Virus record (IMG/VR): IMGVR_UViG_3300038393_002515
DNA length: 64,000 bases
Strand: one strand, 5' to 3'
Source: a virus
Below are positions 618 to 45,601 of the stretch, piece by piece. Position numbers and translations under genes: made by a program. The notes under the pieces are model-generated. The model saw nothing but the letters and a program-made list of their open reading frames with translations, was not told where the DNA came from and did not search any database. Position 1 is the first letter of the stretch; every line of letters begins with the position of its first letter.

Positions 618-647
618 TTGTCACGCATCTATGTGTGCGTTAGGGTG
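618..647 (+). promoter_or_regulatory. conserved promoter-operator element, copy 1
   Basis: TTGTCA-CGCATCTATGTGTGCGT-TAGGGTG. Confidence 0.6.
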
Positions 648-687
648 GGGGTGTTCCGTTGGCCGCCACAACCGGAGGAGGCGCCCC

Positions 688-1227
688 ATGCCCGCCGAAC
701 GCACGTCGCGCGCAGGAGAGCGCCGTCCCAGCCAGGAGATCGAAGCCGACCCCTTCAGCGTCGACATGTCCGAGATCCCTATGACCCCGGCCATGGTCGC
801 CCTCCACGAGGCCGCGAAACTGCGCTACCTCGTACGCAAGGCCGAGCAGCTCCTGGACGACATGGTCATCGACGGCTCTCAGCTCACGGTCGCCGAAGGC
901 CAGCTGATGCAGTTCATCATGCGAGCCCAGGGCAGGCCCTTCACCTGGCGCTCCCAGCTGAAGAAGCTCTTCGAACGCAGGCGCGGCATCAACCTCAGCG
1001 CCCGCACCTGGCGCCAACGCGCCGCTGGCACCATCGGCCTGGGAGAATCCGAGGAGGTCCCTGGCTACATGAACACCGAAACCCTCGCCGCGCTGCGCGA
1101 GCACATCGAGCCCCTCGCCGAACTGGTCGAGAACGCCGAGGCGCTGCGCAAGGAGCAGTTCCCGGCCCTCCAGCGGCGCACCAAGGCCGCCATCGAGGGC
1201 CCGGCCGTCGAGACCGAAGCCGTCTGA
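688..1227 (+). CDS. hypothetical protein (first gene behind promoter-operator copy 1)
   Basis: ATG 688 follows GGAGGAGG; 42 nt downstream of TAGGGT 641-646; normal composition; high GC3. Confidence 0.65.
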   Translation: MPAERTSRAGERRPSQEIEADPFSVDMSEIPMTPAMVALHEAAKLRYLVRKAEQLLDDMVIDGSQLTVAEGQLMQFIMRAQGRPFTWRSQLKKLFERRRGINLSARTWRQRAAGTIGLGESEEVPGYMNTETLAALREHIEPLAELVENAEALRKEQFPALQRRTKAAIEGPAVETEAV

Positions 1228-1331
1228 ACGAGGCAGCGCCCCCGACAAGGTCCCTGTCCGGACCCCAACGGAGGCGCTGCAACGACACGACCATCACCCA
1301 TTTTCCCGCCTAGGAAGAAGCGACGAGGACC

Positions 1332-2324
1332 ATGTCTGCCCCCCAGAGTACCGTCACCAACGCCGTGGTGTCCCACAGCACCACCACCTGGAAGACCAGA
1401 GCCACCCAGGCCGACTGGGACAAGATCATCACGGACGGGATGATCTACCTCCTCGCCGTCGGCGGCTTCTACCTCGGCTACCAGACCCTCTACGACCTCG
1501 CCACCACCGTCGGCTACACCCCCCACCAGGCCTTCGTCGCCGCCGCCCTCGCCGACATCGCGATCCTCGCCTACTCCCGCAAGGCCGTCGCCGAGATCAA
1601 GGCAGGCCGCTCCGCCTGGGGCATCCGCCTCATCGTCGCCGCCTTCTCCCTGGCCACCTTCGGCCTCCAGCTGCGCGCCGCCTGGCCCCACCCCACCGCC
1701 GTCGGCTTCCACGGCATGGCCCCCGCCGTCTGGATCCTCGGCCACGAGATGATGCTCCGAGGCCGCCTGCGCACCGCCAAGGCCGCCCGCCGCGCCGCCC
1801 AGGTCGCCGCCGGACTGCGCCCCGCCCCCCTCCCGGCCATCCGCCTGTCGTGGTGGCTGCTGGACCCGTACCACACCTTCATCATCTGGCGCCTGGTGAA
1901 GCTCTGGGAGAAGCCCCAGGACGAGGTCATCCGTAACGAGGCCGCCAAGCGCAAGGACAAGGGCAAGAACGTCCCCCGCGCCTGGGAGGGCTACCTGCTC
2001 ACCGCCGAGACTCCCGCCGCCGAGGAGACGGCGGAGGAGCCGGAGCAGGAAGAGGAGACCGCGCCGGAGACCGGCCTGTACCGACTGTCCGACCCCACCG
2101 AGAAGGTACCGACCGAGGACTTCGACGCCTTCCTGCTCAACCTCCCCGTCGCCCCGGTCAAGGGCCGCCCCGAAGACAAGGCCATCGAGTACATCCGCGA
2201 AGTCGACAAGCTGGCCGCCAAGGCCGACATCGCCGTCACCGACAGGTTCATCGCCGGACTGCTCGGCGTCCACGCCAGCCGCGTCTGCCGCCTGCGCAAG
2301 GTGATGGCTCCGGCCAACCCCTGA
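1332..2324 (+). CDS. DUF2637-like polytopic membrane protein with acidic C-terminal tail
   Basis: The N-terminal half has several hydrophobic helices (LLAVGGFYLGY, AAALADIAILAY, LIVAAFSLATFGL) and the C-terminus is Glu-rich. The resemblance to DUF2637 proteins of actinobacterial ICEs/plasmids is from memory. Confidence 0.6.
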   Translation: MSAPQSTVTNAVVSHSTTTWKTRATQADWDKIITDGMIYLLAVGGFYLGYQTLYDLATTVGYTPHQAFVAAALADIAILAYSRKAVAEIKAGRSAWGIRLIVAAFSLATFGLQLRAAWPHPTAVGFHGMAPAVWILGHEMMLRGRLRTAKAARRAAQVAAGLRPAPLPAIRLSWWLLDPYHTFIIWRLVKLWEKPQDEVIRNEAAKRKDKGKNVPRAWEGYLLTAETPAAEETAEEPEQEEETAPETGLYRLSDPTEKVPTEDFDAFLLNLPVAPVKGRPEDKAIEYIREVDKLAAKADIAVTDRFIAGLLGVHASRVCRLRKVMAPANP

Positions 2325-2345
2325 TACGCCGGTAGGGTGAATGAC

Positions 2346-2387
2346 AGCAGAGCCCAGACGGGAGTGACGGTCCGTCTGGGCTCTGCT
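2346..2387. terminator. bidirectional terminator hairpin between convergent genes
   Basis: 16-bp perfect stem AGCAGAGCCCAGACGG / CCGTCTGGGCTCTGCT. Confidence 0.65.
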
Positions 2388-2731
2388 CACAGGCTGTAGA
2401 AGGCCCGGTTCGACTCGTACAGGTCGTCCGCCACGGTGGCCAGCAGGTCGTCGCTGGAGCCCCGGTCGCACATGGTTCCCAGGTCGGCCTCGAACTGCTT
2501 GACCGTGCTCGTCGAGGGCGCCCCGTCATCGCCGTCCGCACTCTTGGCGTTAGCCAGCAGCTCCTGAGCCGCGTCCCAGCGCTCACTGTCACTCAGGTGC
2601 CCGGCCCAGTCCGAGCACGTCTGCGCCCCGTACGGCACCGAGGAGTCCTTGCCGTCGCCGGAGCTGCTCCCGCACGCGACGGCCGAGGCCGCCAGGACGA
2701 CGGCCGCCAGCAACAGGCCCGCTCTGCACAT
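2387..2731 (-). CDS. secreted lipoprotein
   Basis: MCRAGLLLAAVVLAASAVAC signal peptide with lipobox A-V-A-C; SD GGAGAGG upstream. Confidence 0.7.
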   Translation of the reverse strand: MCRAGLLLAAVVLAASAVACGSSSGDGKDSSVPYGAQTCSDWAGHLSDSERWDAAQELLANAKSADGDDGAPSTSTVKQFEADLGTMCDRGSSDDLLATVADDLYESNRAFYSL

Positions 2732-2777
2732 CAGTTCCCCACCTCTCCGGCCCGGCCCTCCCCGGCCGGGCGCGGGC

Positions 2778-3113
2778 CTATTGAACCAGGTCCGAGGAGA
2801 CGGCCAGCGCGCGACGGCATTCTTCGATGGCGGTCACGGGGTCCGGCCAGCAGAACAGCTGGTCGACGCTCAGGGCGCTGACGACCTCCACCCAGCCCAT
2901 CTGGGTCCAGGCACGCCCGCCTCCCCGAGCCATGGTGGAGACGCCCCAGCCAGGCTCCTTGGCCGCGCGCTGGCGGCGCACCAGAAGCTCCTCGCCGCCG
3001 TTCTCGGGGACGGGCACGCGGTACTCGGTGGCGTCGGCGGCGAGGGCCTTGGCAGCCGCCAGCTCGGCGCGCAGGCGGGCGATCTCTTCGGCGGGAGTCT
3101 CGGTCTGGCTCAT
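2778..3113 (-). CDS. hypothetical protein
   Basis: ATG at 3113 (MSQTETPAEE...). The ORF track extends to 3146, but those codons are AT-rich; high GC3 afterwards. Confidence 0.55.
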   Translation of the reverse strand: MSQTETPAEEIARLRAELAAAKALAADATEYRVPVPENGGEELLVRRQRAAKEPGWGVSTMARGGGRAWTQMGWVEVVSALSVDQLFCWPDPVTAIEECRRALAVSSDLVQ

Positions 3114-3152
3114 GTGCCCTCCTGGCGGGATGTGAGTTTTCATCATCTCGCA

Positions 3153-5411: not shown

Positions 5412-6416
5412 TCAGGCTCCGGCGACCTTCCGGCGCCGGGTCGCGGGCCCGGAGGAGGCGCGGTGGCCGCCGTCCGGGGTGAAGACCCGCGTGGCCATGG
5501 CGGCCTGGGTGAGGTGGTCGGCGATGGCGCGGGAGATGACCATGCCGGTGGTGACCTCCACGAACCCGAACTGGCCCGAGGGGTTGGCCTCCAGGAACCA
5601 CCAGGTGCCATTGTGGTCGACCGCGAAGTCCAGGGCTGCGTACGCCAGGTCCAGCCTGCGCATCAGCGCCGTTACCTTCTTGGCCATCGGCAGCGTTATC
5701 GGCGCCGCCTCGTAGTGCTGCTCGTCCTCCGGCACGGCCCGCCAGTCCAGGCCGTCGGCGGTGATCTTGCAGGGGAACATGCGGTCCCCGATCACCGTCA
5801 GCCGGATGTCGTGCGTCTTGGCGATCGGCTGCTGGAAGTAGTGCACCCCGCGCTGGATGTTCTCCCAGCTGTCCCGGATCTCCTGGGTGGAGACCAGGCG
5901 GGCCTGCACGAAGCGGTCCGGGTGGCCGACGAGCGTCTTGCACACCACCTGGCCGCCGCACTCCTCGGCGAACACGGCGGCCTTGTCGGGCTCGTTGGTG
6001 AACAGCGCGTCCGGGGTACGGAAGCCGAGGTCGCGTGCCGTCTTGAGCTGCACCGGCCCCGGCCGGGCGGCCAGGGACCGGTGCGGGTGGTTCACCCACA
6101 GCACATCGCTCAGGCCGTACAGGAAGGACTCCAGGATGGTCCTGGACTCCGTCTGCGCCCATTCGGCCGGGTGCTCCGGATGCCACCAGAAGACCGACAC
6201 GATCGACGCCGACAGGGTGGTGCGGTGGCCGTCGTCGACGGTGAACCGCAGCGGCTCGCCGTCGGCCATGCCGGTCATGCGCAGCACGCCGGGCCGGGCC
6301 AGGTCGTTGGGGTCGATCCGGTGGACGTCCATGTCGCGGTCGGCGAGGTGCCGCACGACGAGATCGGCACCTACGTCATTGGGTGCGGCGACCATGAGCA
6401 CTGTGGGAGGGAGCAT
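5412..6416 (-). CDS. ATP-grasp ribosomal-peptide maturase (graspetide macrocyclase, MdnC/SAV_5884-like)
   Basis: RimK-type ATP-grasp layout with a C-terminal WWFLEANPSGQFGFVE block. The start ATG lies 2 nt after the stop of the precursor ORF (TGA-TC-ATG). Confidence 0.8.
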   Translation of the reverse strand: MLPPTVLMVAAPNDVGADLVVRHLADRDMDVHRIDPNDLARPGVLRMTGMADGEPLRFTVDDGHRTTLSASIVSVFWWHPEHPAEWAQTESRTILESFLYGLSDVLWVNHPHRSLAARPGPVQLKTARDLGFRTPDALFTNEPDKAAVFAEECGGQVVCKTLVGHPDRFVQARLVSTQEIRDSWENIQRGVHYFQQPIAKTHDIRLTVIGDRMFPCKITADGLDWRAVPEDEQHYEAAPITLPMAKKVTALMRRLDLAYAALDFAVDHNGTWWFLEANPSGQFGFVEVTTGMVISRAIADHLTQAAMATRVFTPDGGHRASSGPATRRRKVAGA

Positions 6417-6418
6417 GA

Positions 6419-6697
6419 TCAGTCGTCGTCCTTCGTGGTGCCGGAGGAGTTGACGGTGTAGGAGGGGCCGAAGAGCATCGACTTGGCCGGGGGCGGGGCG
6501 ACCCAGTCGTCGTCCTTCTTCGTGCCGGAGGAGTTGGTGGTGATGGTCTCGTTGGCCAGCTCGTGCCGGGCGACGTCGATGACGGGGGTGCCGCAGGAGG
6601 CCACGTTGAGCTGGCGGGCCCGGTCGTAGGTGAAGGCCGGAGTGCGGTCGGTGACCAGCGGGGGGCGCTCTGCGAGGAGGGCGAACGGAGAGGTCAT
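6419..6697 (-). CDS. graspetide (omega-ester/amide RiPP) precursor with two core repeats
   Basis: Leader SPFALLAERP resembles the microviridin PFFARFL leader motif. Two C-terminal repeats, TTNSSGTKKDDD and TVNSSGTTKDDD, are rich in Thr/Ser/Lys donors and Asp acceptors. SD GGAAGGA. Confidence 0.7.
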   Translation of the reverse strand: MTSPFALLAERPPLVTDRTPAFTYDRARQLNVASCGTPVIDVARHELANETITTNSSGTKKDDDWVAPPPAKSMLFGPSYTVNSSGTTKDDD

Positions 6698-8414: not shown

Positions 8415-8450
8415 TAACCGCATCAACGGACATGCGGTTATGCGGTTTTT
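8415..8450. repeat. hairpin plus tandem ATGCGGTT duplication at int 3' end
   Basis: TAACCGCAT-caacggac-ATGCGGTTA-TGCGGTTTTT; overlaps the int stop codon (8438-8440). Confidence 0.7.
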
Positions 8451-9403
8451 CCTTGATCGGGCGTCGCCAGGAACTTCGCCAGGTCGTACACCGGCGACTC
8501 GTCCAGGTCACCCCGGGACAGGTCGTAGCGGGTCGTGGTGCGTGGGTCGGCGTGGCCGAGGAAGCGCTGGACCTTCCGCAGCGGCACCTTGGCGTCCAGC
8601 ATCAGCGTGGCGCAGGTGTGTCGCAGGCCATGCGGGGAGATCCGTGTGACCCGGGCGGCCCGGCAGGAGCGGGAGACGATGACGGCGATGCGCCGGTTGG
8701 TCAGCCGGGCGCCGTCGGCGCACAGGATCAGCGGGTCCTCGGGCTGGCGGTGGGGCCGCATCGCGAGGTGGGCGTCGAGCGCCTTCGCCGCGTCCGGCGG
8801 CACCACGAGCGTCTGCTTCTTCGTCCGCTTGCGGGTGACCTGCAGCGTGCGGTGGCCGCGCTCGCCGTCGTAGTGCTGCACGTTGGCGCTCTCCAGCTCG
8901 GCCGAGCGCAGCCCCATGCCCAGCAGCACCTCGCAGACGGCCGAGTCCACCGCCCCGTACTCCCGGGCCATCTTGCGGAAGGCGCGGGCTTGCGCCCTGT
9001 CCAGGCCGAGCGTCTGCGACTCCTCGGAGACCTCGACGCGGTGCTTGCGCCGGTACGGCGAGCGCCGGATCTCGTACGCCTGCTCGTACTCGTCCAGGCC
9101 GAACTCGTACCAGCCGCTCATGGCGCTGAGCGCCTGGTTCACCGAGGACGGGGCGAACACCTCCTGCAGGTCGGCCGACCACTGCGCGGAGTGTTCACGG
9201 CGGGCCGCCAGCGGGGAGACCCCGTTGTCGAGCGTCCAGTCGAACCACGCCTCGATGCACCGCTTGTAGGCAGCGCGAGTGTGGGCGTTGCGGTGCTCCA
9301 GCAGCCACTGCCGCTCGATCTCCCCGCACACCCGGCGGATGTACGCCTCGTTCTCGTCCAGCTGCAGCGCGCCCGCCGGGGCGACGACCAGGTCAGTGGT
9401 CAT
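8438..9403 (-). CDS. int: tyrosine integrase / site-specific recombinase
   Basis: MGLRSAEL (Arg I), SPHGLRHTCAT (HxxR), LGHADPRTTTRYD (His/Tyr). ATG 9403 is in frame; the longer ORF-track N-terminus is Arg/Pro junk. Confidence 0.85.
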   Translation of the reverse strand: MTTDLVVAPAGALQLDENEAYIRRVCGEIERQWLLEHRNAHTRAAYKRCIEAWFDWTLDNGVSPLAARREHSAQWSADLQEVFAPSSVNQALSAMSGWYEFGLDEYEQAYEIRRSPYRRKHRVEVSEESQTLGLDRAQARAFRKMAREYGAVDSAVCEVLLGMGLRSAELESANVQHYDGERGHRTLQVTRKRTKKQTLVVPPDAAKALDAHLAMRPHRQPEDPLILCADGARLTNRRIAVIVSRSCRAARVTRISPHGLRHTCATLMLDAKVPLRKVQRFLGHADPRTTTRYDLSRGDLDESPVYDLAKFLATPDQGKTA

Positions 9404-9795
9404 GACGTGATCTTGCCGTACCTCTCCTCGATCTCGGCCTTGCACGGCCTGCAGGTGCTGTGCCCGTACGTCCAGGCCGTCTTGTCGAACTGGTCGCGGT
9501 CGAGCCAGCGGAAGCACGAGCCGCACAGCTCCTGGCCCTCCGTGGGCGGGCCCGAGTGCAGGCGCCAGCCGGTCTTGCGCTCCTTGCCCTGCTTGGTGGT
9601 GCCGGACTCGTGCAGGTTGCGGCGGGCGATCCAGCGGAAGCCGCCCAGGCGCTGGCCGCCGGACGGGTCCCAGACCTTGATCCTGTCGCCGTCCACGCTC
9701 CACACGACGAACGGCTTGTGGCGCGTCTCCCCCCAGAGGTAGTCCGTCTTGCACGGCACGTACGTCTGTTCCGGCAGCACCTCGAAGTCACTCAC
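9400..9795 (-). CDS. Cys-rich hypothetical protein translationally coupled to int (candidate directionality factor)
   Basis: GTG 9795 after AAGGGGGA. Its TGA overlaps the int ATG (ATGA, 9400-9403). CGSC...CRPC pairs. Confidence 0.55.
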   Translation of the reverse strand: MSDFEVLPEQTYVPCKTDYLWGETRHKPFVVWSVDGDRIKVWDPSGGQRLGGFRWIARRNLHESGTTKQGKERKTGWRLHSGPPTEGQELCGSCFRWLDRDQFDKTAWTYGHSTCRPCKAEIEERYGKITS

Positions 9796-11979: not shown

Positions 11980-12210
11980 TCAGACGGTCAGGCCGTCGAC
12001 GAACGCCGCCCAGGCCTCGGGCCGGAAGGCGAGAATGCGGGCGTCGGCGGAGTCCTGCTTGCTGTCGTAGACGCCGACGGCGGCCACGGCACCCGTGGTG
12101 TCCTGCTGGATTCCCTGGAAAACGCAGTTCTCGCCCGAACCGCTCTCGCTCGACTTGTGCCAGCCGGTGAACTGCTCCTTCGTGTACTGCATGGACTGCG
12201 TTCCTTTCAT
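11980..12210 (-). CDS. DUF397 domain protein (BldB-like)
   Basis: WHKSSESGSGENCV...VYDSKQ...ILAFRPEAWAAFV matches the DUF397 pattern. ATG 12210 lies 13 nt after the HTH gene stop. Confidence 0.75.
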   Translation of the reverse strand: MKGTQSMQYTKEQFTGWHKSSESGSGENCVFQGIQQDTTGAVAAVGVYDSKQDSADARILAFRPEAWAAFVDGLTV

Positions 12211-12223
12211 CGGTTTCCCCGGC

Positions 12224-13090
12224 TCACAAGCGGCTGAGGAAGTTGTGGAGGTACCGGCGGGAATCCGGTACCGACAGGGCTTGGCTCTGCAGCCTGTCAT
12301 AACGGGCACGGTACATGGAAACCTGCTCTTCGTCCTCGAAGAACGTTCCGTCTCCGTACCCCTCACGAAACGTCAACTCCACGTCAACTACGGTCAGTAG
12401 AGTGAAGGATCCAGACATCCCGGCGTGCAGGCCCGAGGCCAGAGGGAGGATCTGGATGCTGGCCCTCGTCTCTCCCAGGTTGAGCAGGTGTTGGATCTGT
12501 TCGCGATGCGCCTCGACGTCCCCCTCGGCAGGGGGCGTCAGGACCGCAGCCTCTCCTATGATCGCCCACACCTGCGGCGGGTGTTCGGTCTGCAGCAACT
12601 TCTTGCGCGTCTCACGCAGCGCCAAGTGCCCCTCGATCACCCCCGGATCCACCAGCGGCTGGCCCGGCTGGGCCAGATTGCCCCTGCGGATGGCCTCCTC
12701 GGAGGTTCGCGCCGTCTGCAGGAGGCCGGGGATGACGTACGGCTCCCAGGTACGCAGGGCGGTCGCCATGCTCTCCGCGTCGGCATAGTCGGTGTAGGTG
12801 GGCCCGAGACGGCTGGCCACACCAAGCGGAGCGCGCTCCTTGGCCCGGGTCGCCCACTCCTCCATGCGCTCGATCTGCCGGGAGTCGCTGATCCCGTAGA
12901 TACGGCAGTAGGCGCCGATCATGCCCTTCTTGACGGCCGTGTGACCGGACTCGTTCCGGTAGATCGTCGGCACAGACAGGCCGATCTTGTCGGCGACCTC
13001 CTTGGCTGTAAGTCCGGCCTCGTCACGGGCCAGCTTGAGCATGCGCCCGAGGATGCGTCTGCGGATGGTAGGCAGCGATCCGTACGCCAC
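12224..13090 (-). CDS. XRE-family HTH regulator with DUF5753 C-domain (WhiJ/Scr1-like)
   Basis: LKLARDEAGLTAKEVADKIGLSVPTIYRNESG HTH plus a long C-domain. GTG 13090 after GAGGGGAGGA. Confidence 0.75.
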   Translation of the reverse strand: MAYGSLPTIRRRILGRMLKLARDEAGLTAKEVADKIGLSVPTIYRNESGHTAVKKGMIGAYCRIYGISDSRQIERMEEWATRAKERAPLGVASRLGPTYTDYADAESMATALRTWEPYVIPGLLQTARTSEEAIRRGNLAQPGQPLVDPGVIEGHLALRETRKKLLQTEHPPQVWAIIGEAAVLTPPAEGDVEAHREQIQHLLNLGETRASIQILPLASGLHAGMSGSFTLLTVVDVELTFREGYGDGTFFEDEEQVSMYRARYDRLQSQALSVPDSRRYLHNFLSRL

Positions 13091-13294
13091 GAGCCTGTCC
13101 TCCCCTCGTCGGTCAGTGCGGCAAGTCTGCACCCCCGTCAGGCTCTTAGACCAGTCACCCGCATGTGCACATTCTCATTCTGAGGACTTGCAGAACGAGA
13201 GATCTTCCGCCACGGTGGGTGACAACCCGCTTGCGCCAGGTACCGCATCGGTGTGAGCAGGCCTCACCTGCCCATCCTGCAACGGGAGTTACAC

Positions 13295-13774
13295 ATGCAC
13301 TCCCAGACTCGCCAGGGTCCGCCAACCCTGGGTCTGCTTGGGAACATCCGCTACACCCGCGCCTATTCGAAGGAACTGGCGAGCGTGCCTCTCGCTCGTG
13401 CGCGGTTCCACGAGGCCGCCGACGACAGCAAGCTCGACCACGAGATCGCCGAGAAGGCCGTGCTGTGCCTGTCCGAGCTGGCCGGTAACGCCGTCAGACA
13501 CGCCCACGACCCGCGCAAGATCCGCCGGTTCCTCGTCGAGTCCACGATCCGCCCGATACGCCGCCGCTTCACCCTGGAGGTCAGCGTTTGGGACATCGAC
13601 CTCTGCCACATCCCCCCTCTGCCGGACCCCGCCACGGCCGCCGCGCGGCTCTTCTCCATGGACGAGGACGCCATGAGCGGGCGAGGGCTGCTGTTCGCCG
13701 CCTCCCTGTCCGACGGCATCGGCATCGACCGTGGCCCCCACGGCAAACGAGTCTGGTGCCGCTGGCACCTCTGA
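13295..13774 (+). CDS. HATPase_c_2 anti-sigma-factor-type Ser kinase-like ATP-binding protein
   Basis: LSELAGNAVRHA N-box and GRGLLF G-box; divergent from the WhiJ-like gene, which is the classic triad arrangement. Confidence 0.7.
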   Translation: MHSQTRQGPPTLGLLGNIRYTRAYSKELASVPLARARFHEAADDSKLDHEIAEKAVLCLSELAGNAVRHAHDPRKIRRFLVESTIRPIRRRFTLEVSVWDIDLCHIPPLPDPATAAARLFSMDEDAMSGRGLLFAASLSDGIGIDRGPHGKRVWCRWHL

Positions 13775-13802: not shown

Positions 13803-13834
13803 TTGACGCACGCATCTATAGATGCGTTAGGGTG
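13803..13834 (+). promoter_or_regulatory. conserved promoter-operator element, copy 2
   Basis: TTGACG-c-ACGCATCTATAGATGCGT-TAGGGTG (perfect 18-bp palindrome). Confidence 0.65.
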
Positions 13835-14522: not shown

Positions 14523-14554
14523 TTGACACACGCATCTATGGATGCGTTAGGGTG
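14523..14554 (+). promoter_or_regulatory. conserved promoter-operator element, copy 3
   Basis: TTGACA-c-ACGCATCTATGGATGCGT-TAGGGTG. Confidence 0.65.
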
Positions 14555-15629: not shown

Positions 15630-16116
15630 CCCCGCCCGCCTGAAGATCACCGTCACCCGCGACGACGTACTGAAGGGCCTGGAGAAGCACGCCAGCAACC
15701 TCAGCACCATCGCCGACATCGCGCGCGCCGTCGTCGCCGGTGTCCACGGGGTCGAAGGCGTCTGGGACGGCAAGACCGCCCTGTCTTACGTCCATCAGGC
15801 CGACCTCAAGCGGCTGCTGGCCGACATGGTCGCCGACGGCTCCCTGATCCTGCGTCCGGGCCCCGAGTGGGTCGAGCGTGGCGCGCCCACGTGGAACATC
15901 CGCAAGGGCGGCCACTACTACGCCTTGCCGCAGGAGGCCCGCCAGTGGCAGGAGGCGGCCGACCAGAGGCGCGCCCAGGCCCGCCAGGAGACGGCCGAGC
16001 GGCTCGCCCGGAACAAGCTGGTCGAGCTGCACCCGCGCCAGTACGCGGACCTGGTGAACGAGTACCTCGCCGCGTACGACCGCGTCGGCGCCCAGGAGAC
16101 GGAGCCCCTCGCGTGA
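15619..16116 (+). CDS. hypothetical protein
   Basis: ATG 15619 after GGAAGGA; 11-nt overlap with the upstream gene. Confidence 0.6.
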   Translation: MGTDPARLKITVTRDDVLKGLEKHASNLSTIADIARAVVAGVHGVEGVWDGKTALSYVHQADLKRLLADMVADGSLILRPGPEWVERGAPTWNIRKGGHYYALPQEARQWQEAADQRRAQARQETAERLARNKLVELHPRQYADLVNEYLAAYDRVGAQETEPLA

Positions 16117-16736: not shown

Positions 16737-16768
16737 TTGACACATGCATCTATGGATGCGTTAGGGTG
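16737..16768 (+). promoter_or_regulatory. conserved promoter-operator element, copy 4
   Basis: TTGACA-c-ATGCATCTATGGATGCGT-TAGGGTG. Confidence 0.65.
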
Positions 16769-18502: not shown

Positions 18503-18512
18503 CCCGCATGGA

Positions 18513-18540
18513 CGGCCCGCCCCCAGACCGGGGCGGGCCG
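18513..18540 (+). terminator. intrinsic terminator
   Basis: CGGCCCGCCCC / GGGGCGGGCCG stem, then TGTTGTTCC. Confidence 0.65.
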
Positions 18541-18556
18541 TGTTGTTCCTGAAGGA

Positions 18557-18588
18557 TTGACACACGCATCTATGGATGCGTTAGGGTG
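18557..18588 (+). promoter_or_regulatory. conserved promoter-operator element, copy 5
   Basis: TTGACA-c-ACGCATCTATGGATGCGT-TAGGGTG. Confidence 0.65.
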
Positions 18589-19934: not shown

Positions 19935-19991
19935 GGCATGGCCCCACTCGCTAGACACGCATCTATGGATGCGTTAGGGTGGGGCCATGCC
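19935..19991. repeat. 13-bp perfect inverted repeat bracketing promoter copy 6
   Basis: GGCATGGCCCCAC (19935-19947) / GTGGGGCCATGCC (19979-19991). Confidence 0.75.
19952..19981 (+). promoter_or_regulatory. conserved promoter-operator element, copy 6
   Basis: TAGACA-CGCATCTATGGATGCGT-TAGGGTG (short-spacer class). Confidence 0.6.
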
Positions 19992-23449: not shown

Positions 23450-23481
23450 TTGACTCATGCATCTATGGATGCGTTAGGGTG
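23450..23481 (+). promoter_or_regulatory. conserved promoter-operator element, copy 7
   Basis: AAGGGGC-TTGACT-c-ATGCATCTATGGATGCGT-TAGGGTG. Confidence 0.65.
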
Positions 23482-25565: not shown

Positions 25566-25597
25566 TTGACTCATGCATCTATGGATGCGTTAGGGTG
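25566..25597 (+). promoter_or_regulatory. conserved promoter-operator element, copy 8
   Basis: AAGGGGC-TTGACT-c-ATGCATCTATGGATGCGT-TAGGGTG, identical to copy 7. Confidence 0.65.
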
Positions 25598-27652: not shown

Positions 27653-27684
27653 TTGACCCATGCATCTATGGATGCGTTAGGGTG
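27653..27684 (+). promoter_or_regulatory. conserved promoter-operator element, copy 9
   Basis: AAGGGGC-TTGACC-c-ATGCATCTATGGATGCGT-TAGGGTG. Confidence 0.65.
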
Positions 27685-29190: not shown

Positions 29191-29222
29191 CTCCCTCATG
29201 CATCTATGGATGCGTTAGGGTG
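29191..29222 (+). promoter_or_regulatory. conserved promoter-operator element, copy 10 (no -35 hexamer)
   Basis: CTCCCTC-ATGCATCTATGGATGCGT-TAGGGTG. Confidence 0.5.
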
Positions 29223-29253
29223 GACTCCCCGCCAGACACTGAGGAGCATGATC

Positions 29254-30546
29254 ATGAACGCCACCACCGTCGAGACCGTCACGCTGATCTTCGAGATGAC
29301 CCCGTGCGGGCGCTGCGGAGGCACCGGCCAGCACCTGTACAACCAGCGTGACGGCCGCGTGTGCTGGGGCTGCTCCGGCGCCGGTGAGCACCTCTCCCCC
29401 CGGGGCAAGCGCGCCGCCGAGGCCCTCGATGTGGCGATGCGCGAGTCGGCGGGCACCGTGGCCGTCGCCGACATCACGCCCGGCATGCGCATCAAGTGCC
29501 CGGCGCACGGCGGCCTCGACGGCCAGGCGCGCCCCTGGAACTACAAGCCCGCATGGCGCACCGTGGCCTCCGTCGAGATCACCGAGTACACCGGGCGCGG
29601 CCAGGAGGGCGGGTACATCATCGACGTGCCGTGCGTGCGCGCCTCGCTCGTCTTCGAGGACGGCAAGACCTGGACGGCGGAGTCTTCCGACCACCCCGCC
29701 TACTGGGCCAAGGGCGCGTTCCGCACGACCTACAGCGAGCGCTCGTTCTGGCTCGGCGGCGAGGAGGCCCGCGCCGCCCGCATGGAGGTGCGCCGCGCCA
29801 TCGCCCGCCGGTTCGTCGGCGCCTGGCTGGAGGGCGAGGAGCCCCCGGCGCGCCCCGAGCGCAAGCCCCGCACCCCCAAGCCCGCCCAGGAGGCCCCCGC
29901 GCCCAAGCCGCTCGCCTCCAACAGGTTCGCCGGTGACTGCCGCAAGTGCGGCACCCGGGTGGAGGCGGAGCAGGGCGAGCGCGAGCGCGTGGACGGCCGC
30001 TGGGAGGTCCAGCACAAGGCCGGTGAGTGCCAGGAGCGCCCGGCCGCCGAGGAGGCCCAGGAGGCGCCCCAGGGGGCCGCCGCTCCCGCCCAGGAGCGCC
30101 CGGCTCGCCCCGCCATGGTGAACAAGTTCCCCGGCAAGTGCGCGCGCTGCGGTGTGCGGGTGCTGGCCGAGCAGGGCGAGCGGGTGCGCGTGGACGGCGA
30201 GTGGATCACCCGGCACCGTGAGGGCGAGTGCCCCGCCAGCACCACGACCATGATCACCGAGGAGGGCATGTACGCCCGCGAGGGGGAGGTGTACCGGGTC
30301 CGTCGCTCCGAGAGCGGCAACCTCTACGCCGAGCGTCTCACCCCGCCCGCCCACGCGGACGGCGGCGCCACGTTCACGTACGACCCGGCCGCCGTGTACG
30401 CCCTCACCCCCGCCGACCGCATGACGGTGGAGGCGGCCGCCGAGGTGGGCCGACGGCTTCACGCGTGCTGCGTGTGCGGGCAGCGCCTCACCGACCCGGC
30501 GAGCGTGAAGCGGGGGATCGGCCCGGTGTGCCGCAAGCGGGTGTAG
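29254..30546 (+). CDS. multi-Zn-ribbon protein with DUF6011-like C-terminus
   Basis: CGRCGGTG..CWGCSG. Duplicated block N(R/K)F(A/P)G.C.(K/R)CG.RV.AEQGER.RVDG.W..(H/R).(K/R).GEC. C-terminal CVCGQRLTDPASVKRGIGPVCRK. Confidence 0.6.
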   Translation: MNATTVETVTLIFEMTPCGRCGGTGQHLYNQRDGRVCWGCSGAGEHLSPRGKRAAEALDVAMRESAGTVAVADITPGMRIKCPAHGGLDGQARPWNYKPAWRTVASVEITEYTGRGQEGGYIIDVPCVRASLVFEDGKTWTAESSDHPAYWAKGAFRTTYSERSFWLGGEEARAARMEVRRAIARRFVGAWLEGEEPPARPERKPRTPKPAQEAPAPKPLASNRFAGDCRKCGTRVEAEQGERERVDGRWEVQHKAGECQERPAAEEAQEAPQGAAAPAQERPARPAMVNKFPGKCARCGVRVLAEQGERVRVDGEWITRHREGECPASTTTMITEEGMYAREGEVYRVRRSESGNLYAERLTPPAHADGGATFTYDPAAVYALTPADRMTVEAAAEVGRRLHACCVCGQRLTDPASVKRGIGPVCRKRV

Positions 30547-30615: not shown

Positions 30616-30647
30616 TTGACCCACGCATCTATGGATGCGTTAGGGTG
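30616..30647 (+). promoter_or_regulatory. conserved promoter-operator element, copy 11
   Basis: TTGACC-c-ACGCATCTATGGATGCGT-TAGGGTG. Confidence 0.65.
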
Positions 30648-30677: not shown

Positions 30678-32129
30678 ATGAACAACCTCGACACCCTCCA
30701 GAGCATCCTCGACGGCTACTACCACGACGGCGCCGACCTGGAGACCCTCGCCGCCCAGGTGAGCCGCCTCGCCGCCGAGACCCGCGCCCCCTCCCTGCTC
30801 GCCGCCGCCGAGGGCTACTACGGCAACACCCTCGACGCCGAGGAGTTCATCGGCCTCGCCGCCAGCGCCCGGCGCGAACTGACCAACCCCCAGCCCCAGG
30901 AGGCCCCCACCATGCCGACCACCCCCGCCCCCGCCGAGGACACCGTGACCCTGCGCATCCCCGGCCGCGTCGCCGCCTTCTTCCAGGACCGCACCCCCGA
31001 CGCGCACGCCAGCCTCGACGCCATGGACCGCGACATTGCCCGCGCCCTGGACACCGCCGAGGAGCGCCGCCACGGCAAGACCGGCACCGTCACCATCATG
31101 ATCACCACCCCCGCCGTCGCCGCCGGATTCCTCGCCACCCTCGCCAACCTCTGCGAGATCGAGTTCGACGCCGACGACGCCGACACCAAGACCGCCACCG
31201 CCGGACTCGCCTACGTCCAGCGCTGCCAGGCCCAGGGCATCACCACCACCATCCCCGACGACTACCGCATGCAGGACCCGGCCGCCCAGGCCGCCCTCGA
31301 CGCCGACCGCGCCCAGGCCGCCCAGGAAGCGCAGCAGCGCGCCGCCCAGCGCGAGGAGAACACCACCCACCGCGCCGCCTGGGAGTCCCTCACCCGCGAG
31401 GAGCGCCAGGAGCGCACCACCGCCCTCCTCGACGCCGCGTGCACCGTGCTCGGCCTCCAGCGCGCCGACCGCCGCAACTGGCTCGACATGGGCAGCGTCG
31501 CCGCCAGCGTCACCGACGGCCGCCTGTACATGGAGGTCCGCCGCCTCGCCGACCCCACCGCCCAGCCCGCCCTCGACGCCGCCCGCAACGCCCTGCAGGC
31601 CGCCGGATGGACCGTGACCGACTGGGGCACCCACTTCTACGCCCAGGCCCCCCAGGAGCCCGCCCAGGGGCCCCAGGAGGCCCGGGAGGTCCTGTTCACC
31701 GACCACCACCGCTGCGAGCACCGCAAGACCGCCAGCGCCGACCACGCCCCCACCTGCCCCGTGTACGACGAGGGCGCCACCGCCGAGCGCTGCACCTGCC
31801 ACTACTCCGACGCCCTGTGCGAGGAGCGCCAGACCACCGCCACCCCCGTCACCGTCGAGTGGACCCACACCGTGCGCGGCCACCGCAACGGCACCGCCCG
31901 GATCGGCTCCACCACCTACCGGATCACCCACATCACCCACGCCAGCCGCAAGCGCGGCGCCCTGGGCGACCACCTCGCCCACACCCCCGCCGCCGACGGC
32001 CGCACGGGCCCCTACGTCGCCCGCACCTGGGGCCTGCCCGACCTGCTCGCCACCCTCGCCCAGCGTGAGGGGATCACCGGCCCCCTCGACGTCCGCGAGA
32101 CCGGCCGCGAGCGCCTCACCCGCCGCTGA
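30678..32129 (+). CDS. hypothetical protein
   Basis: AAGGAG-CATGATC-ATG behind promoter copy 11. Confidence 0.6.
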   Translation: MNNLDTLQSILDGYYHDGADLETLAAQVSRLAAETRAPSLLAAAEGYYGNTLDAEEFIGLAASARRELTNPQPQEAPTMPTTPAPAEDTVTLRIPGRVAAFFQDRTPDAHASLDAMDRDIARALDTAEERRHGKTGTVTIMITTPAVAAGFLATLANLCEIEFDADDADTKTATAGLAYVQRCQAQGITTTIPDDYRMQDPAAQAALDADRAQAAQEAQQRAAQREENTTHRAAWESLTREERQERTTALLDAACTVLGLQRADRRNWLDMGSVAASVTDGRLYMEVRRLADPTAQPALDAARNALQAAGWTVTDWGTHFYAQAPQEPAQGPQEAREVLFTDHHRCEHRKTASADHAPTCPVYDEGATAERCTCHYSDALCEERQTTATPVTVEWTHTVRGHRNGTARIGSTTYRITHITHASRKRGALGDHLAHTPAADGRTGPYVARTWGLPDLLATLAQREGITGPLDVRETGRERLTRR

Positions 32130-35222: not shown

Positions 35223-35462
35223 ATGCCCCACCCCGACGACGAGACCGACGAGGAGCAGGCCCGCACCGCGCGGCTCCTGCGCATCCCGGCCGATCGGATC
35301 GCCTACTACAGCGCCGAGACCGTGTGCGCCTGGCTCCTCGCCCGCAACGAGCAGCACCGCACCCGACTGCGCGCCGCCTGCCAGGAGTTGCGGGCAGCGG
35401 CCGCCCAGGAGCGTTGCGCCCTTGCTGCGCTCTACCGCGCCACCGCCCAGGAGCGCCCCTGA
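35223..35462 (+). CDS. hypothetical protein (cassette array 7)
   Basis: CCCAGGAGCAACCCGCC-ATG. Confidence 0.55.
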   Translation: MPHPDDETDEEQARTARLLRIPADRIAYYSAETVCAWLLARNEQHRTRLRAACQELRAAAAQERCALAALYRATAQERP

Positions 35463-35773
35463 TGGCCGTCATCGACGGCCGCCAGAGCTGGCAGCGCCTG
35501 CGCCCCGCCACCCTCGCCCAGCTCGCCGCGACCATGACCGCCCCGGAGATCGCCGACATGTTCGGCGTCCCCCTGGGCACCGTCCGCTCGCGCCTCGCCG
35601 CCCACCGCATCACCGCCCGCTCCGCCCGCCCGGCAGCCAGCCCTCGGCCCGCCATCCCCCGATGCTCCGCCCCGCTCGCCCTCACCGGCGCACCCTGCGC
35701 CGCCCCGCTCGACCCCGACGGCTCGTGCCGCTGGGCTCACCAGCACACCGACCACACCGCCCAGGAGGCGTGA
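35462..35773 (+). CDS. small sigma-70-region-4/LuxR-type HTH DNA-binding protein
   Basis: MTAPEIADMFGVPLGTVRSRLA HTH. ATG 35462 shares one nt with the upstream TGA and is preceded by CAGGAGCGCCCC. Confidence 0.55.
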   Translation: MAVIDGRQSWQRLRPATLAQLAATMTAPEIADMFGVPLGTVRSRLAAHRITARSARPAASPRPAIPRCSAPLALTGAPCAAPLDPDGSCRWAHQHTDHTAQEA

Positions 35774-37228: not shown

Positions 37229-37272
37229 GAACCCCACCCTAACGCAGCTATAGATGCGCTAGGGTGGGGTTC
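37229..37272. promoter_or_regulatory. mirrored copy 12: 44-bp near-perfect palindrome with TAGGGTG boxes facing both ways
   Basis: GAACCCCACCCTAACGCAGCTA|TAGATGCGCTAGGGTGGGGTTC; two mismatches per 22-nt arm; no TTGAC on either side. Confidence 0.55.
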
Positions 37273-37346: not shown

Positions 37347-38225
37347 ATGGGACTCCCGAAGGTCGACGAGGCCACCACCATCGCCCTGGAAGCCATCCGC
37401 GACGCCGCCCCCGCCCTGCTCACCGTGACCGAGGTCTCCAAGAAGGTCGCCTCGGCCGCCGACGTCTCCGTCGGCACCGCCCGCAGCCGGGTGCGCGCCG
37501 CCTTCGAGGCGGGCGGGCTCCTCGAACTCAAGCCCTGGTCGCGGAAGTTCTTCATCGAGCTGCCCGGCGCGGAGGCCGCCGGTCTCGGCCCGTTCTACAT
37601 CGCCCGCGAGTGGACGGGGACCGGCCGCGAACACCGCCACGTGATCACCACCGACGACAGCGCGATGCGCCCCAGCTCCTACGGCCCCGGCAACACCACG
37701 TACGTGGCCGACCCCGAGCAGATCCGCGAGTACGTCCAGCGGCTCACCGACGAGAAGAAGGCCAAGGAGGACGCCGAGGCCGAGGCTTGGAGGAACGACA
37801 GGAAGGCGCAGGTCAAGGAGATCGCCCGTCGCTTCCCCGGACTGCGCAAGGCGCTGCGCATGCTCGAACTTCTCGGCACCTTCGCCAACCCGACCGACGC
37901 GCACGGCTCCATGCTGACCGCCAGGGTGTACCTGGACACCTCCCGCCACCAGGCTCAGGACGCGCCGGTCTCCGAGCGGAACTCGAACATGGTGATCCAG
38001 GTGGAGGGTGACGAGAACGTGGGCATCCTGCAGACGATCCTGAGCGCCGGGCTCTCCTCCCTCCTCGCGGAACAGCCCGTCACCCACTGCAAGCACTGCT
38101 CGGGCCGCATCCTGTACGCCCAGGCCAGGTTCGGCACCGGCTGGTGGCACGTCGACACCACCAACGGCTCCTGCGGCGAGGACACCGACACCAAGGCCGA
38201 GCCCGCCGAGACCGAGGAGAACTGA
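37347..38225 (+). CDS. hypothetical protein with N-terminal winged-helix-like segment and C-terminal CxxC pair
   Basis: CCCGCCTAGGAG-N10-ATG 37347; first gene to the right of the 44-bp palindrome. Confidence 0.6.
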   Translation: MGLPKVDEATTIALEAIRDAAPALLTVTEVSKKVASAADVSVGTARSRVRAAFEAGGLLELKPWSRKFFIELPGAEAAGLGPFYIAREWTGTGREHRHVITTDDSAMRPSSYGPGNTTYVADPEQIREYVQRLTDEKKAKEDAEAEAWRNDRKAQVKEIARRFPGLRKALRMLELLGTFANPTDAHGSMLTARVYLDTSRHQAQDAPVSERNSNMVIQVEGDENVGILQTILSAGLSSLLAEQPVTHCKHCSGRILYAQARFGTGWWHVDTTNGSCGEDTDTKAEPAETEEN

Positions 38226-39551: not shown

Positions 39552-39771
39552 GCCCAGGATCATCCAGCCGGTCAGGCCGACCCGGCCGAGCTACAGTCTG
39601 CGGGAGGCCGAGTTGCTGATGCGGATTCTCCTGAGCAGCGGGCATCCGCAGGCCGAGCATCTGGTCACCAAGCTGGTCACCGCCGCTGAACAGCCCGGGG
39701 CGTACATAGAGTTGATGGAGCGTGTGCGGGCCTCGGTCATCTTGAATCACGAAGGGCCTCGCACCCCGTAG
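39544..39771 (+). CDS. hypothetical protein
   Basis: GTG 39544 after GGGGAG. Its TAG stop is part of the TAGACA of promoter copy 13. Confidence 0.5.
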   Translation: MSEPRIIQPVRPTRPSYSLREAELLMRILLSSGHPQAEHLVTKLVTAAEQPGAYIELMERVRASVILNHEGPRTP

Positions 39772-39798
39772 ACACGCATCTATGTGTGCGTTAGGGTG
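39769..39798 (+). promoter_or_regulatory. conserved promoter-operator element, copy 13
   Basis: TAGACA-CGCATCTATGTGTGCGT-TAGGGTG; same variant right half-site as copy 1. Confidence 0.6.
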
Positions 39799-43892: not shown

Positions 43893-43922
43893 TAGACATG
43901 CATCTATGGATACGTTAGGGTG
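43893..43922 (+). promoter_or_regulatory. conserved promoter-operator element, copy 14
   Basis: TAGACA-TGCATCTATGGATACGT-TAGGGTG. Confidence 0.6.
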
Positions 43923-44712: not shown

Positions 44713-44725
44713 TAACGAGTAAGCA

Positions 44726-44750
44726 AAAAACCGCATTTCCGTTGATCCGC
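44726..44750. repeat. 25-nt sequence matching (inverted) the int 3' end region
   Basis: AAAAACCGCATTTCCGTTGATCCGC against the reverse complement of 8418-8450 with one ATGCGGTT unit removed. I count 22 of 25 identical. Confidence 0.55.
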
Positions 44751-44775
44751 TGAAGCGGACTTCGGCAAGATAAGT

Positions 44776-44814
44776 GACGGCCGCCACCACTGACCGCCAT
44801 CAGCGGCGGCCGTC
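44776..44814 (+). terminator. terminator hairpin
   Basis: GACGGCCGCC / GGCGGCCGTC stem, then CCCGTTTACC. Confidence 0.5.
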
Positions 44815-44850
44815 CCCGTTTACCTCTTGACCCGCCACAGGAGGCCCCCA

Positions 44851-45129
44851 ATGTCACAGATGACCGCCACCGTCGGACCGTTGGTCCGCCTCGGCGGAAC
44901 GATCCGCCTGACCGCCCGGCGCAGCGACGGCTGCACCATCGAGATGGAGCTGACCCGGGGCAGGGAGCGCGGGCATGTCACCCACGCCGTGACCAGCGAG
45001 GACGGCCGCCTGGTGTCCGTGGCGGCTCGGTCGTGGCCGCTGACCGGCGCCGAGCCGAAGCTGGCCGCCGACGTCCGTGACGCCATCCAGATCGCCGAGA
45101 AAGGCCTCGCCGAGGCCTGCGCGCGCTAG
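44851..45129 (+). CDS. hypothetical protein
   Basis: CCCGCCACAGGAGG-N6-ATG 44851. Confidence 0.55.
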   Translation: MSQMTATVGPLVRLGGTIRLTARRSDGCTIEMELTRGRERGHVTHAVTSEDGRLVSVAARSWPLTGAEPKLAADVRDAIQIAEKGLAEACAR

Positions 45130-45185
45130 CCTCGAACTGCCCGCCAGGCACCCCTTCCGTTCCGACTCACCGCCAGGAGTCCCCC

Positions 45186-45557
45186 ATGGCCGCCAAGTCA
45201 TCGACCCGCAGGCTGACCGCCGCCGAGCGTCAGGCCCTGCTCCACGCCGACCCGGCCACCGGTCGGATCAACGCATCCGGCTTCAACTTCCGCGAGGAGT
45301 TGCGCCGCAAGGGCTACGCCGAGTCCTCGCATGGAACCCTGTATCTGACCGAGTACGGCTGGCGGCTGCACGCCCGGCTGAAGGAGGAGCACCGGGAGTT
45401 CGCCGTCGAGGGTGTGCCCTGGGTGAAGATCCAGGAGATCACCGACCTGTACCTGTTGACCGGGCTCGGCATCGGCGAGATCTCACGGCGCACCCGTGTG
45501 ACCGGAGAAGGGGTCAGGGCCGCGCTCGCCTTTCGCAAGGTCCTTCCCGCCGCCTGA
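45186..45557 (+). CDS. small DNA-binding protein (winged-helix-like N-half, HTH C-half); repressor/regulator candidate
   Basis: RRKGYAESSHGTLYLTEYG wing pattern, then ITDLYLLTGLGIGEISRRTRVTGEGVRAAL HTH. Ends 14 nt before promoter copy 15. Confidence 0.55.
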   Translation: MAAKSSTRRLTAAERQALLHADPATGRINASGFNFREELRRKGYAESSHGTLYLTEYGWRLHARLKEEHREFAVEGVPWVKIQEITDLYLLTGLGIGEISRRTRVTGEGVRAALAFRKVLPAA

Positions 45558-45570
45558 AAGGTGCCCTCGC

Positions 45571-45601
45571 CACCCCTCGCATCCATAGATGCGTTAGGGT
45601 G
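45571..45601 (+). promoter_or_regulatory. conserved promoter-operator element, copy 15 (no -35 hexamer)
   Basis: CACCCC-TCGCATCCATAGATGCGT-TAGGGTG. Confidence 0.5.

Follow-up and report, generated by a model that had tools for sequence, protein, structure and literature searches.

The DNA analysed here is a 64,000-nt stretch of a virus, IMG/VR record IMGVR_UViG_3300038393_002515, with a GC content of 70% (hereafter the window, in which position 1 is the first letter). Among its genes are those for a portal, a tailspike-like protein, a dCTP deaminase and a tyrosine recombinase (Table 1), while domain searches of the window open reading frames (ORFs) indicate that nearly all of those between 13.8 and 47.8 kb are ORFans. 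The feature under study is a promoter-like element with an embedded palindrome, of which a first-pass annotation, made from the sequence alone, had listed fifteen copies. All fifteen positions indeed carry the element when the sites are read directly. As that annotation also described, the copies are intergenic, lie on the + strand and are oriented with the genes (15/15), copy 13 overlapping the last codon of the ORF upstream. The distance from the end of the -10 hexamer to a start codon preceded by a Shine-Dalgarno (SD) sequence is 26-88 nt over the 15 copies. Since the genes downstream of the copies are not paralogues, gene duplication was ruled out as the source of the repeats.

The consensus of the element is (C)A(C/T)GCATCTATGGATGCGT-TAGGGTG, with 15 occurrences in the 64-kb window and 0 expected by chance. 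The 23-mer GCATCTATGGATGCGTTAGGGTG is exact in nine of the 15 copies and, when up to three mismatches are allowed, gives 16 matches, of which 15 are the sites and one is copy 12 read on the opposite strand; 100 dinucleotide-preserving shuffles put the expected number at zero. In a position weight matrix scan of the 64 kb, the true sites score 39-52 bits and only their reverse strands otherwise exceed 8 bits, with no degenerate halo copies and no copies inside genes.

Each copy has the layout of a promoter. The -10 hexamer TAGGGT fits TANNNT in all 15 copies, and a consensus-like -35 is found 17 or 19 nt from it in 12 of them. The spacer is filled by the 18-bp 7-4-7 dyad ACGCATC-TATG-GATGCGT, in a fixed register with the -10; in copy 2 this is a perfect 18-bp palindrome, in agreement with the first reading of the sequence. 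The two spacing classes proposed there were also recovered, namely TTGACN with a 19-nt spacer in copies 2, 3, 4, 5, 7, 8, 9 and 11 (8/15) and TTGTCA or TAGACA with a 17-nt spacer in copies 1, 6, 13 and 14 (4/15). Copies 10, 12 and 15 are, as claimed, without a -35. Two traits of these three had been missed: their left flank is mirrored, CACCCTAA-like, and copy 12 lies within a 44-nt near-perfect palindrome. Such copies may represent extended binding sites, bidirectional promoters or fusions of a terminator with a promoter. It had further been stated that most copies follow a terminator hairpin. A strong GC-rich hairpin lies within 95 nt upstream of about eight of the 15, so the statement holds only roughly and "most" is slightly generous. 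These hairpins were scored by folding the upstream regions, as a generic promoter and terminator scan (TATAAT, T-rich tails) is uninformative at 70% GC.

Table 1. Copies of the element, related elements in other genomes, and further features of the window (positions refer to the window unless a locus is named)
Feature	Position	Strand	Description
Copy 1	618..647	+	TTGTCA, 17 nt, TAGGGT; right arm degenerate (TGTGCGT); heads ORF 688-1227 and DUF2637 gene
Copy 2	13803..13834	+	TTGACG, 19 nt, TAGGGT; perfect palindrome ACGCATCTATAGATGCGT; first promoter of rightward gene block
Copy 3	14523..14554	+	TTGACA, 19 nt, TAGGGT; core exact
Copy 4	16737..16768	+	TTGACA, 19 nt, TAGGGT; behind GC hairpin; heads ORF 16799-18502
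Copy 5	18557..18588	+	TTGACA, 19 nt, TAGGGT; behind 12-bp GC hairpin 18512-18541; heads ORF 18628-19920
Copy 6	19952..19981	+	TAGACA, 17 nt, TAGGGT; heads ORF 20040-20645
Copy 7	23450..23481	+	TTGACT, 19 nt, TAGGGT; ~75-nt promoter and leader nearly identical to copy 8; heads ORF 23525-25489
Copy 8	25566..25597	+	TTGACT, 19 nt, TAGGGT; heads ORF 25638-27056, unrelated to copy 7 gene
Copy 9	27653..27684	+	TTGACC, 19 nt, TAGGGT; heads ORF 27717-29096
Copy 10	29191..29222	+	no -35; left flank CTCCCTCA partly mirrors the -10 side; heads ORF 29248-30546 (C-terminal DUF6011)
Copy 11	30616..30647	+	TTGACC, 19 nt, TAGGGT; heads ORF 30678-32129
Copy 12	37229..37272	+	no -35; core inside palindrome GAACCCCACCCTAACGCAGCTATAGATGCGCTAGGGTGGGGTTC; reverse strand scores too; heads ORF 37347-38225
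Copy 13	39769..39798	+	TAGACA, 17 nt, TAGGGT; right arm degenerate (TGTGCGT); kept at orthologous L001 site
Copy 14	43893..43922	+	TAGACA, 17 nt, TAGGGT; right arm GATACGT; behind hairpin GGCCCGCCCC..GGGGCGGGC; kept in L001
Copy 15	45571..45601	+	no -35; left flank CACCCCT; kept in L001; heads ORF 45637-46227
Element of pRLB1-9.1			19 copies; TTGACA-19 or TAGACA-17; GCAAC-N4-G(T/A/G)TGC; -10 TAGAGT
Element of L025 and L027			2 copies each; TAGACA; spacer ATGCAYATCSATRTGCAT; -10 TAG(A/G)TT
Element of L028 (NBC_01242)			5 copies; TAGACA, TTGTCA or degenerate; perfect palindrome ACGCACTGAACAGTGCGT or near variants; -10 mostly TAGGTT
Element of L026 (sp. cg35)			3 copies; TAGACA or degenerate; spacer ACGCACTGAACAGTACGC; -10 TAGAGT, TAGGTT, TACGGT
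Element of L036			2 copies; TAGACA; spacer ACGCACTAGCTAGTGCGC; -10 TAGGTT
Element of L037			3 copies; TTGACA-19 or TAGACA-17; spacer CGCACTCGCGAGTACGT; -10 TAAGGT, TACGGT
Element of L029			2 copies; TAGACG or TTCACA; spacer conserved, non-palindromic; -10 TAACGT, TAAAGT
Dyad alleles			ACGCATCTATAGATGCGT (window) vs GGCAACGACTGTTGCC
Exact 23-mer copies	L002 3821-3843; L003 1158-1180; L004 7817-7839		loci resembling integrative and conjugative elements
Diverged single copies	L010 ~6003; L011 ~6001; L018 ~4089		two plasmids and one prophage
WhiJ-like Xre helix-turn-helix and DUF5753 protein	12224-13090	-	candidate regulator; integrase-proximal module, divergent from promoter-bearing block
DUF397 small protein	11980-12210	-	DUF397 also called at the same position in relatives
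HATPase_c_2 (anti-sigma-factor-like) protein	13253-13774	+	immediately upstream of copy 2; same arrangement in relatives
DUF2637 protein	1332-2324		
Tyrosine recombinase	8438-9754	-	
dCTP deaminase	49955-50575		
Portal	57840-60005		
Tailspike-like protein	60002-62902		
tRNA-like elements	20654-20718, 21399-21467	+	in spacers without the promoter motif
CCCGCC box (examples)	14583, 16777, 20022, 20730, 33733, 38202, 42633, 46958, 50647	+	

The window was compared with eight relatives of ~155 kb. One is pRLB1-9.1 of Streptomyces sp. RLB1-9 (NZ_CP041653.1; loci L030-L033), a circular molecule of 154,158 bp in which 64.2-132.9 kb is syntenic with 1-63 kb of the window. The others are L029 and six (L025-L028, L036 and L037) that lie on ~151-158-kb contigs from other Streptomyces or from soil metagenomes. 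None of the eight contains the window motif. Each has a repeated element of its own, placed behind a gene end or a hairpin and before a CCCGCC box, an SD sequence and a start codon. All eight retain a -35 of TTGACA or TAGACA, with some degenerate copies, and a -10 of the form TANNNT, in most cases TAGNNT, while the spacer between them is lineage-specific, with seven different spacers in the eight relatives, among them ATGCAYAT-CS-ATRTGCAT, ACGCACTG-AA-CAGTGCGT, ACGCACTG-AA-CAGTACGC, ACGCACTA-GC-TAGTGCGC and CGCACTC-GC-GAGTACG. In seven of the eight lineages this spacer is a dyad, and a GCA-N8-TGC frame, two nt from the -10, recurs in most of them. The 19 copies of pRLB1-9.1 are all on the gene strand and all within the homologous ~50 kb (64.8-114.3 kb of 154 kb). 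The window's own allele is found in a closer relative, the IMG/VR fragment L001, whose proteins are 35-82% identical to those of the window; three of its copies are at intergenic sites orthologous to those of copies 13, 14 and 15, and there is one more.

Because the hexamers remain constant while the spacer differs by lineage, a promoter with an operator as its spacer is favoured. This agrees with the simplest reading in the first-pass annotation, that of an HrdB-type promoter with a repressor operator as spacer, given that relatives keep the hexamers and swap the dyad from one lineage to the next. The 15 elements are very probably promoters of the host sigma-HrdB type, and probably a promoter-operator regulon with lineage-specific alleles. 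The explanation we lean towards, with modest confidence, is that they are host RNA polymerase promoters whose spacer dyad would serve a single dimeric regulator as operator; this protein would be encoded by the element itself and gate the whole block. We infer the use of host RNA polymerase, repression rather than activation, and the identity of the regulator from sequence comparison.

According to this explanation, the principal RNA polymerase holoenzyme of the host (sigma-HrdB type) would read the -35 TTGACN or TAGACA, the -10 TAGGGT and a G-rich discriminator. If transcription starts ~7 nt past the -10 hexamer, the dyad would be centred near -21.5, and a dimeric regulator bound to it would occupy -30 to -13 and keep RNA polymerase out. 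In this way one regulator might silence the mostly ORFan units of a ~45-kb block (618 and 13.8-47.8 kb) and then release all of them together, each unit having its own promoter and about half also their own upstream hairpin. Two classes are present in both the window and pRLB1-9.1, one with TTGACA, 19 nt and a perfect dyad and the other with TAGACA, 17 nt and an often imperfect right arm, which hints at two grades of control.

The copies without a -35 have counterparts in pRLB1-9.1. At its sites 103,335 and 113,617, orthologous to such copies, there is no -35 either and an outer CCCCAC...GTGGGG symmetry is kept; the orthologue of copy 15 is among the sites without a -35. Another palindrome, the 14-bp TTGCGYTARCGCAA, is conserved in the divergent control region of L026, L027 and L029, in the intergenic gap that precedes the first leftward early gene, with a different palindrome at that position in L025. 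It may be a second operator.

One alternative is that the elements are promoters only, their spacer being kept by the spread of promoter-leader cassettes through recombination or gene conversion, or by tuning of RNA polymerase contacts, with no dedicated regulator. Copies 7 and 8, and also copies 9, 10 and 11, have ~75 nt of promoter and 5' untranslated region in common before unrelated genes, and about half of the copies lie behind a hairpin, as is the case in the promoter early stem-loop (PeSL) cassettes of T4-type phages. Per-position information also shows the window spacer to be conserved throughout, even at the centre of the dyad. However, the flanks of most copies are unrelated, and seven of eight lineage-specific spacers are dyads. 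The 19 copies of pRLB1-9.1 provide a quantitative measure. Their information content is ~2 bits at the dyad arms, at the -10 and at the three G's after it (G-6 to G-4), but drops to 0.1-0.6 bits in the centre of the dyad and in the 2-nt linker. Conserved arms around a freely varying centre and linker are not predicted by hitch-hiking, and because of this pattern the sites can be read as two half-sites. The profile fits the signature of a half-site operator, unlike a cassette kept by descent or a promoter for a phage polymerase. Promoters without a regulator are therefore considered unlikely.

The 19-nt class brings in a second alternative, in which an activator binds the dyad. The block could be switched on by a MerR-like protein that realigns the over-long 19-bp spacer, or by some other factor. 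A perfect dyad centred in a 19-nt spacer is the geometry of MerR-family promoters, and eight of the 15 copies show TTGACN-19 with a perfect 7-4-7 dyad centred between the hexamers. The TTGACA-19 class recurs in pRLB1-9.1 and L037, and the three copies without a -35 might need help. Against this, the same dyad is used with a 17-nt spacer in four copies and with 17-18 nt in many copies of the relatives. Among the relatives 17-, 18- and 19-nt spacers all occur, and two of them, pRLB1-9.1 and L037, keep TTGACA-19 and TAGACA-17 side by side. No MerR or HTH_17 domain was detected in the window ORFs at E <= 0.01, and none is annotated in pRLB1-9.1. MerR-like activation of the 19-nt class is disfavoured, and activation through the dyad in general appears quite unlikely.

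The first-pass annotation had offered another possibility, that the ~25-bp block ending in TTA|GGG is a promoter for a T7-like RNA polymerase. More broadly, the elements could be read by a phage-encoded polymerase or sigma factor, including N4-like recognition of DNA hairpins. The near-invariance of that block and the three copies without a -35 would suit such a polymerase. As single-stranded DNA the palindrome folds well (-8.2 kcal/mol, z = -5.8; -19.9 kcal/mol for copy 12), and pRLB1-9.1 encodes a small sigma-70 region 4 protein, outside the part corresponding to the window. However, no RNA polymerase was found in the window ORFs (Pfam, PHROGs) or among the 185 annotated features of pRLB1-9.1. 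The hexamers match the host consensus and stay constant while the intervening block changes by lineage. Conservation is <=0.6 bits from ~4 nt after the -10 hexamer and ends at about -4, without spanning the start site, whereas a T7-like block extends from about -17 to +6. A hairpin promoter is further disfavoured, since stem mismatches go uncompensated in three window copies (1, 13 and 14) and nine of the 19 pRLB1-9.1 copies. The T7-like proposal is thus unsupported, and transcription by a phage polymerase or sigma factor is highly improbable.

The palindrome might also act in RNA, either as a processing site or as a hairpin that terminates read-through transcripts. No separate terminator precedes copy 12, whose own hairpin would have ~20 bp, and other intergenic spacers of the genome carry structured, tRNA-like RNA elements. 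The arms show no covariation, though, and the dyad is locked to the -10 hexamer rather than to the end of the upstream gene. In addition, most copies already lie behind a separate hairpin or directly behind a stop codon. We give a role in RNA very little credence.

Copies of the motif also occur outside this family. The exact 23-mer is found once each in loci of S. echinoruber, NPDC046759 and NPDC001714 that resemble actinomycete integrative and conjugative elements (AICEs), with a shared stretch of at least 28 nt, and diverged copies are present on plasmids of NBC_00285 and S. hygroscopicus 5008 and in one IMG/VR prophage (Table 1). In the AICE-like loci there are DUF2637 genes together with one KorSA-like gene of the GntR type and one TraB-like gene. 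The motif is absent from sequenced phages. A pattern scan of metagenomes gave a chance match only, on a contig with 49% GC, and palindrome-only matches in IMG/VR were mostly low-GC chance matches. A full-text literature search for the motif sequence or a described Streptomyces regulon returned nothing relevant.

Based on these copies, the dyad could instead be the site of a regulator encoded by the host or widely shared among mobile elements, and used alike by this phage family, AICEs and plasmids. The exact 23-mer in three AICE-like loci and the related copies in two plasmids and a prophage would suit such a shared factor, as would the lack of a common regulator gene in the available flanks. 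The only protein shared with an AICE-like locus, a generic Xre/DUF5753 paralogue, has a different recognition helix and was rejected as a common regulator, and the plasmid loci have no protein in common with the window. In contrast, close relatives of the window within the same genus bear quite different dyads, which is unexpected for a conserved host factor. The first-pass annotation had asked whether the repeat might be generic in the host; the 23-mer occurs in only 3 of 185,579 species genomes, and so does not mark a regulon of the host. A regulator encoded by the host or shared widely is accordingly judged very unlikely. As for the AICE and plasmid copies, mobile elements resident in the same cell may have exchanged promoter cassettes, or one may eavesdrop on the regulation of another.

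For an operator read by a regulator of the phage itself, our best guess, a tentative one, is the WhiJ-like Xre/DUF5753 protein. No other protein of the window was confidently recognised as binding DNA sequence-specifically. In every relative examined, the WhiJ-like gene is divergently oriented and placed between the first promoter and the recombinase. Its identity between the window and pRLB1-9.1 (WP_143626663.1) is 46%, compared with 64-68% for its immediate neighbours and ~60-85% for many neighbouring genes, which puts it among the more divergent of the syntenic genes. The recognition helix differs wherever the operator differs and is identical in L025 and L027, which have a common operator. 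Small DUF397 proteins are the usual partners of WhiJ-like regulators, and the trio of Xre/DUF5753, DUF397 and HATPase_c_2 genes (11980-13774), which is typical of Streptomyces, occupies the same place in every relative examined. Other helix-turn-helix (HTH) proteins had also been put forward. The one at 45186-45557 is disfavoured, and rejected as the specificity determinant, because it is 82% identical in pRLB1-9.1 in spite of the different operator. The one at 35462-35773 (weakly Sigma70_r4-like) has no counterpart in pRLB1-9.1.

A more speculative extension, which we regard as rather doubtful, is that the dyad is the target of a WhiJ-type trio recruited as the immunity switch of a phage-plasmid. 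Operator and recognition helix would then co-diversify into immunity types, and AICEs and small plasmids with the identical operator-promoter could eavesdrop on the state of the phage-plasmid. WhiJ-like proteins are a family with dozens of paralogues per Streptomyces genome, and the dyad would in that case be the first defined operator for this very large and poorly understood group.

Several points weigh against a phage-encoded repressor acting on an operator within the promoter, and against the WhiJ-like protein in that role. Promoter activity and repression are both deductions. The conserved window spacer, centre included, is on its own compatible with recent cassette spread, given copies 7/8 and 9/10/11. 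The spacer of L029 is conserved yet non-palindromic, with only two copies. A repressor private to the phage does not explain the AICE and plasmid copies, as no regulator common to them (or to the prophage) and the window was found in the available flanks. The match between helix and operator is confounded by overall genome divergence, there is no copy of the element upstream of the WhiJ-like gene itself, and further HTH proteins are encoded outside the window in the ~155-kb genome.

Near-DNA and protein searches found no close relative of the window among sequenced phages. Distant relatives of its portal, at 37-40% identity, occur in cluster C mycobacteriophages and in myoviruses of Rhodococcus and Gordonia, and an identical portal is present in soil metagenomes. 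A search of PLSDB with the portal gave one record, pRLB1-9.1, at 91% identity. Homologues of the WhiJ-like protein with 50-79% identity are on 151-158 kb contigs in many Streptomyces isolate assemblies, and a 100%-identical homologue is on a contig of 309,833 bp, or ~2x 155 kb. NCBI contigs that belong to the ~155-kb family include CP191269.1, JAPEOV010000003.1, JBSFYH010000015.1, JBFBHY010000019.1 and JBEYWI010000020.1. Plasmid pRLB1-9.1 encodes ParA, a ParB-like protein, baseplate J, an HK97-fold capsid protein, Pol III alpha, DnaB and WhiB, and its family has two tyrosine recombinases and myovirus-like structural genes. Based on the synteny with pRLB1-9.1 and this mixture of phage and plasmid genes, the window can be considered a 64-kb piece of a family of ~155-kb circular, temperate, myovirus-like Streptomyces phage-plasmids, as judged from gene content. 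The literature found on pRLB1-9.1 treats it simply as a circular plasmid, and the family seems not to have been described previously as phage-plasmids.

Some genes of the window are of interest in themselves. Two of the promoter-headed ORFans contain recognisable domains, a GmrSD_N (DUF262) nuclease-like domain at ~15867-16658 and the C-terminal DUF6011 of the ORF behind copy 10, and L037 has a Tad2-like gene in the corresponding block. This hints at defence or anti-defence functions in the promoter-headed block. A search for loci related to a 601-aa ORFan of the window returned none. On the - strand, 5412-6697 encodes an ATP-grasp enzyme with a small ORF upstream, whose pRLB1-9.1 counterparts are annotated as an MvdC/MvdD-type ATP-grasp ligase and tgmA, the precursor of an ATP-grasp-modified ribosomally synthesized and post-translationally modified peptide (RiPP). 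A RiPP cluster carried by the phage-plasmid is possible.

Two further signals were observed between the genes. The tRNA-like elements consist of a 7-bp acceptor-like stem (GCCCCGG/CCGGGGC), a stacked GC hairpin and a T-arm with a GGTTCGAnnCC loop, with no D-arm and no normal anticodon arm; neither ARAGORN nor Rfam calls them. Besides the two in the window, they are found at ~87.1 kb of pRLB1-9.1 and in L025-L028, giving 10 copies in six genomes with compensatory changes at three pairs. Possibly they punctuate polycistronic mRNAs as processing signals of the RNase P/Z type. The second signal is a CCCGCC box 0-15 nt upstream of the SD sequence, present at no fewer than 21 + strand genes vs three pattern matches on the - strand. 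Fourteen boxes occur in the 15 promoter leaders vs 2.3 expected. The box also precedes genes without a promoter of their own, is conserved in all relatives and resembles the start-associated sequences of cluster K mycobacteriophages.

The element gives a handle on the control of a 45-50-kb block of probable host-takeover or accessory genes. A complete relative with a culturable host is available, Streptomyces sp. RLB1-9 with pRLB1-9.1, and the natural operator alleles of the relatives make specificity-swap comparisons possible. With their consensus -35, TAGNGT -10, GGG discriminator and putatively repressible spacer, the promoters are candidate parts for orthogonal, switchable expression in Streptomyces.

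Compared with known systems, the repressor logic looks familiar, while the sequence looks new and the phage family undescribed. In MerR-family promoters (merT, soxS, tipA), a 7-4-7 dyad lies in a 19-bp spacer between good hexamers, a geometry that eight of the 15 window copies fit. The window dyad is also used with 17-nt spacers, however, and those of the relatives also with 18 nt, and no MerR-type protein was detected. The PeSL cassettes consist of a hairpin and an early promoter before many ORFans in a plastic region, and near-identical cassettes before unrelated genes are common to both systems. No operator is known from PeSLs, whereas here the spacer holds a dyad with operator-like conservation and lineage-specific alleles. 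In mycobacteriophage L5 and other cluster A phages, the gp71 stoperators are dozens of repressor sites oriented with transcription; this too is an actinophage system with one site repeated in the direction of transcription. Stoperators, however, are asymmetric 13-mers located mostly within transcription units, where they block elongation, and the sites described here are symmetric and inside promoters.

The closest known analogues appear to be the C1 regulon of P1 and the conserved inverted repeat (CIR) and early-promoter system of phiC31. Phage-plasmid P1 is a large myovirus maintained as a plasmid, with a C1 repressor and many dispersed operators that overlap promoters. It resembles the present family in being a myovirus kept as a plasmid, and the proposed single repressor for many promoter-overlapping operators would be a second likeness. 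P1 operators differ in being asymmetric 17-mers spread genome-wide, compared with a dyad confined to one ~50-kb block at a constant position in the promoter. The phiC31 genome (NC_001978) contains the CIR CCTACTCACGTGAGTAGG in at least 10 copies and the early promoter CCGGGTTGCCGACTCCCTTAC in 9-10 copies. Neither motif occurs in the window at up to three mismatches. In tblastn searches for the phiC31 c repressor or gp12, the window gave no match and pRLB1-9.1 only a non-significant one to gp12 (E = 0.73). phiC31 is likewise a temperate Streptomyces phage; its palindromic operator and its promoter are both repeated between the genes of the early block, where a single repressor controls many units, as one regulator would in the window. 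The difference lies in the architecture: in phiC31 the operator and the promoter are separate and the promoter is not sigma-70-like, whereas in the window the putative operator is itself the spacer of a -35/-10 promoter.

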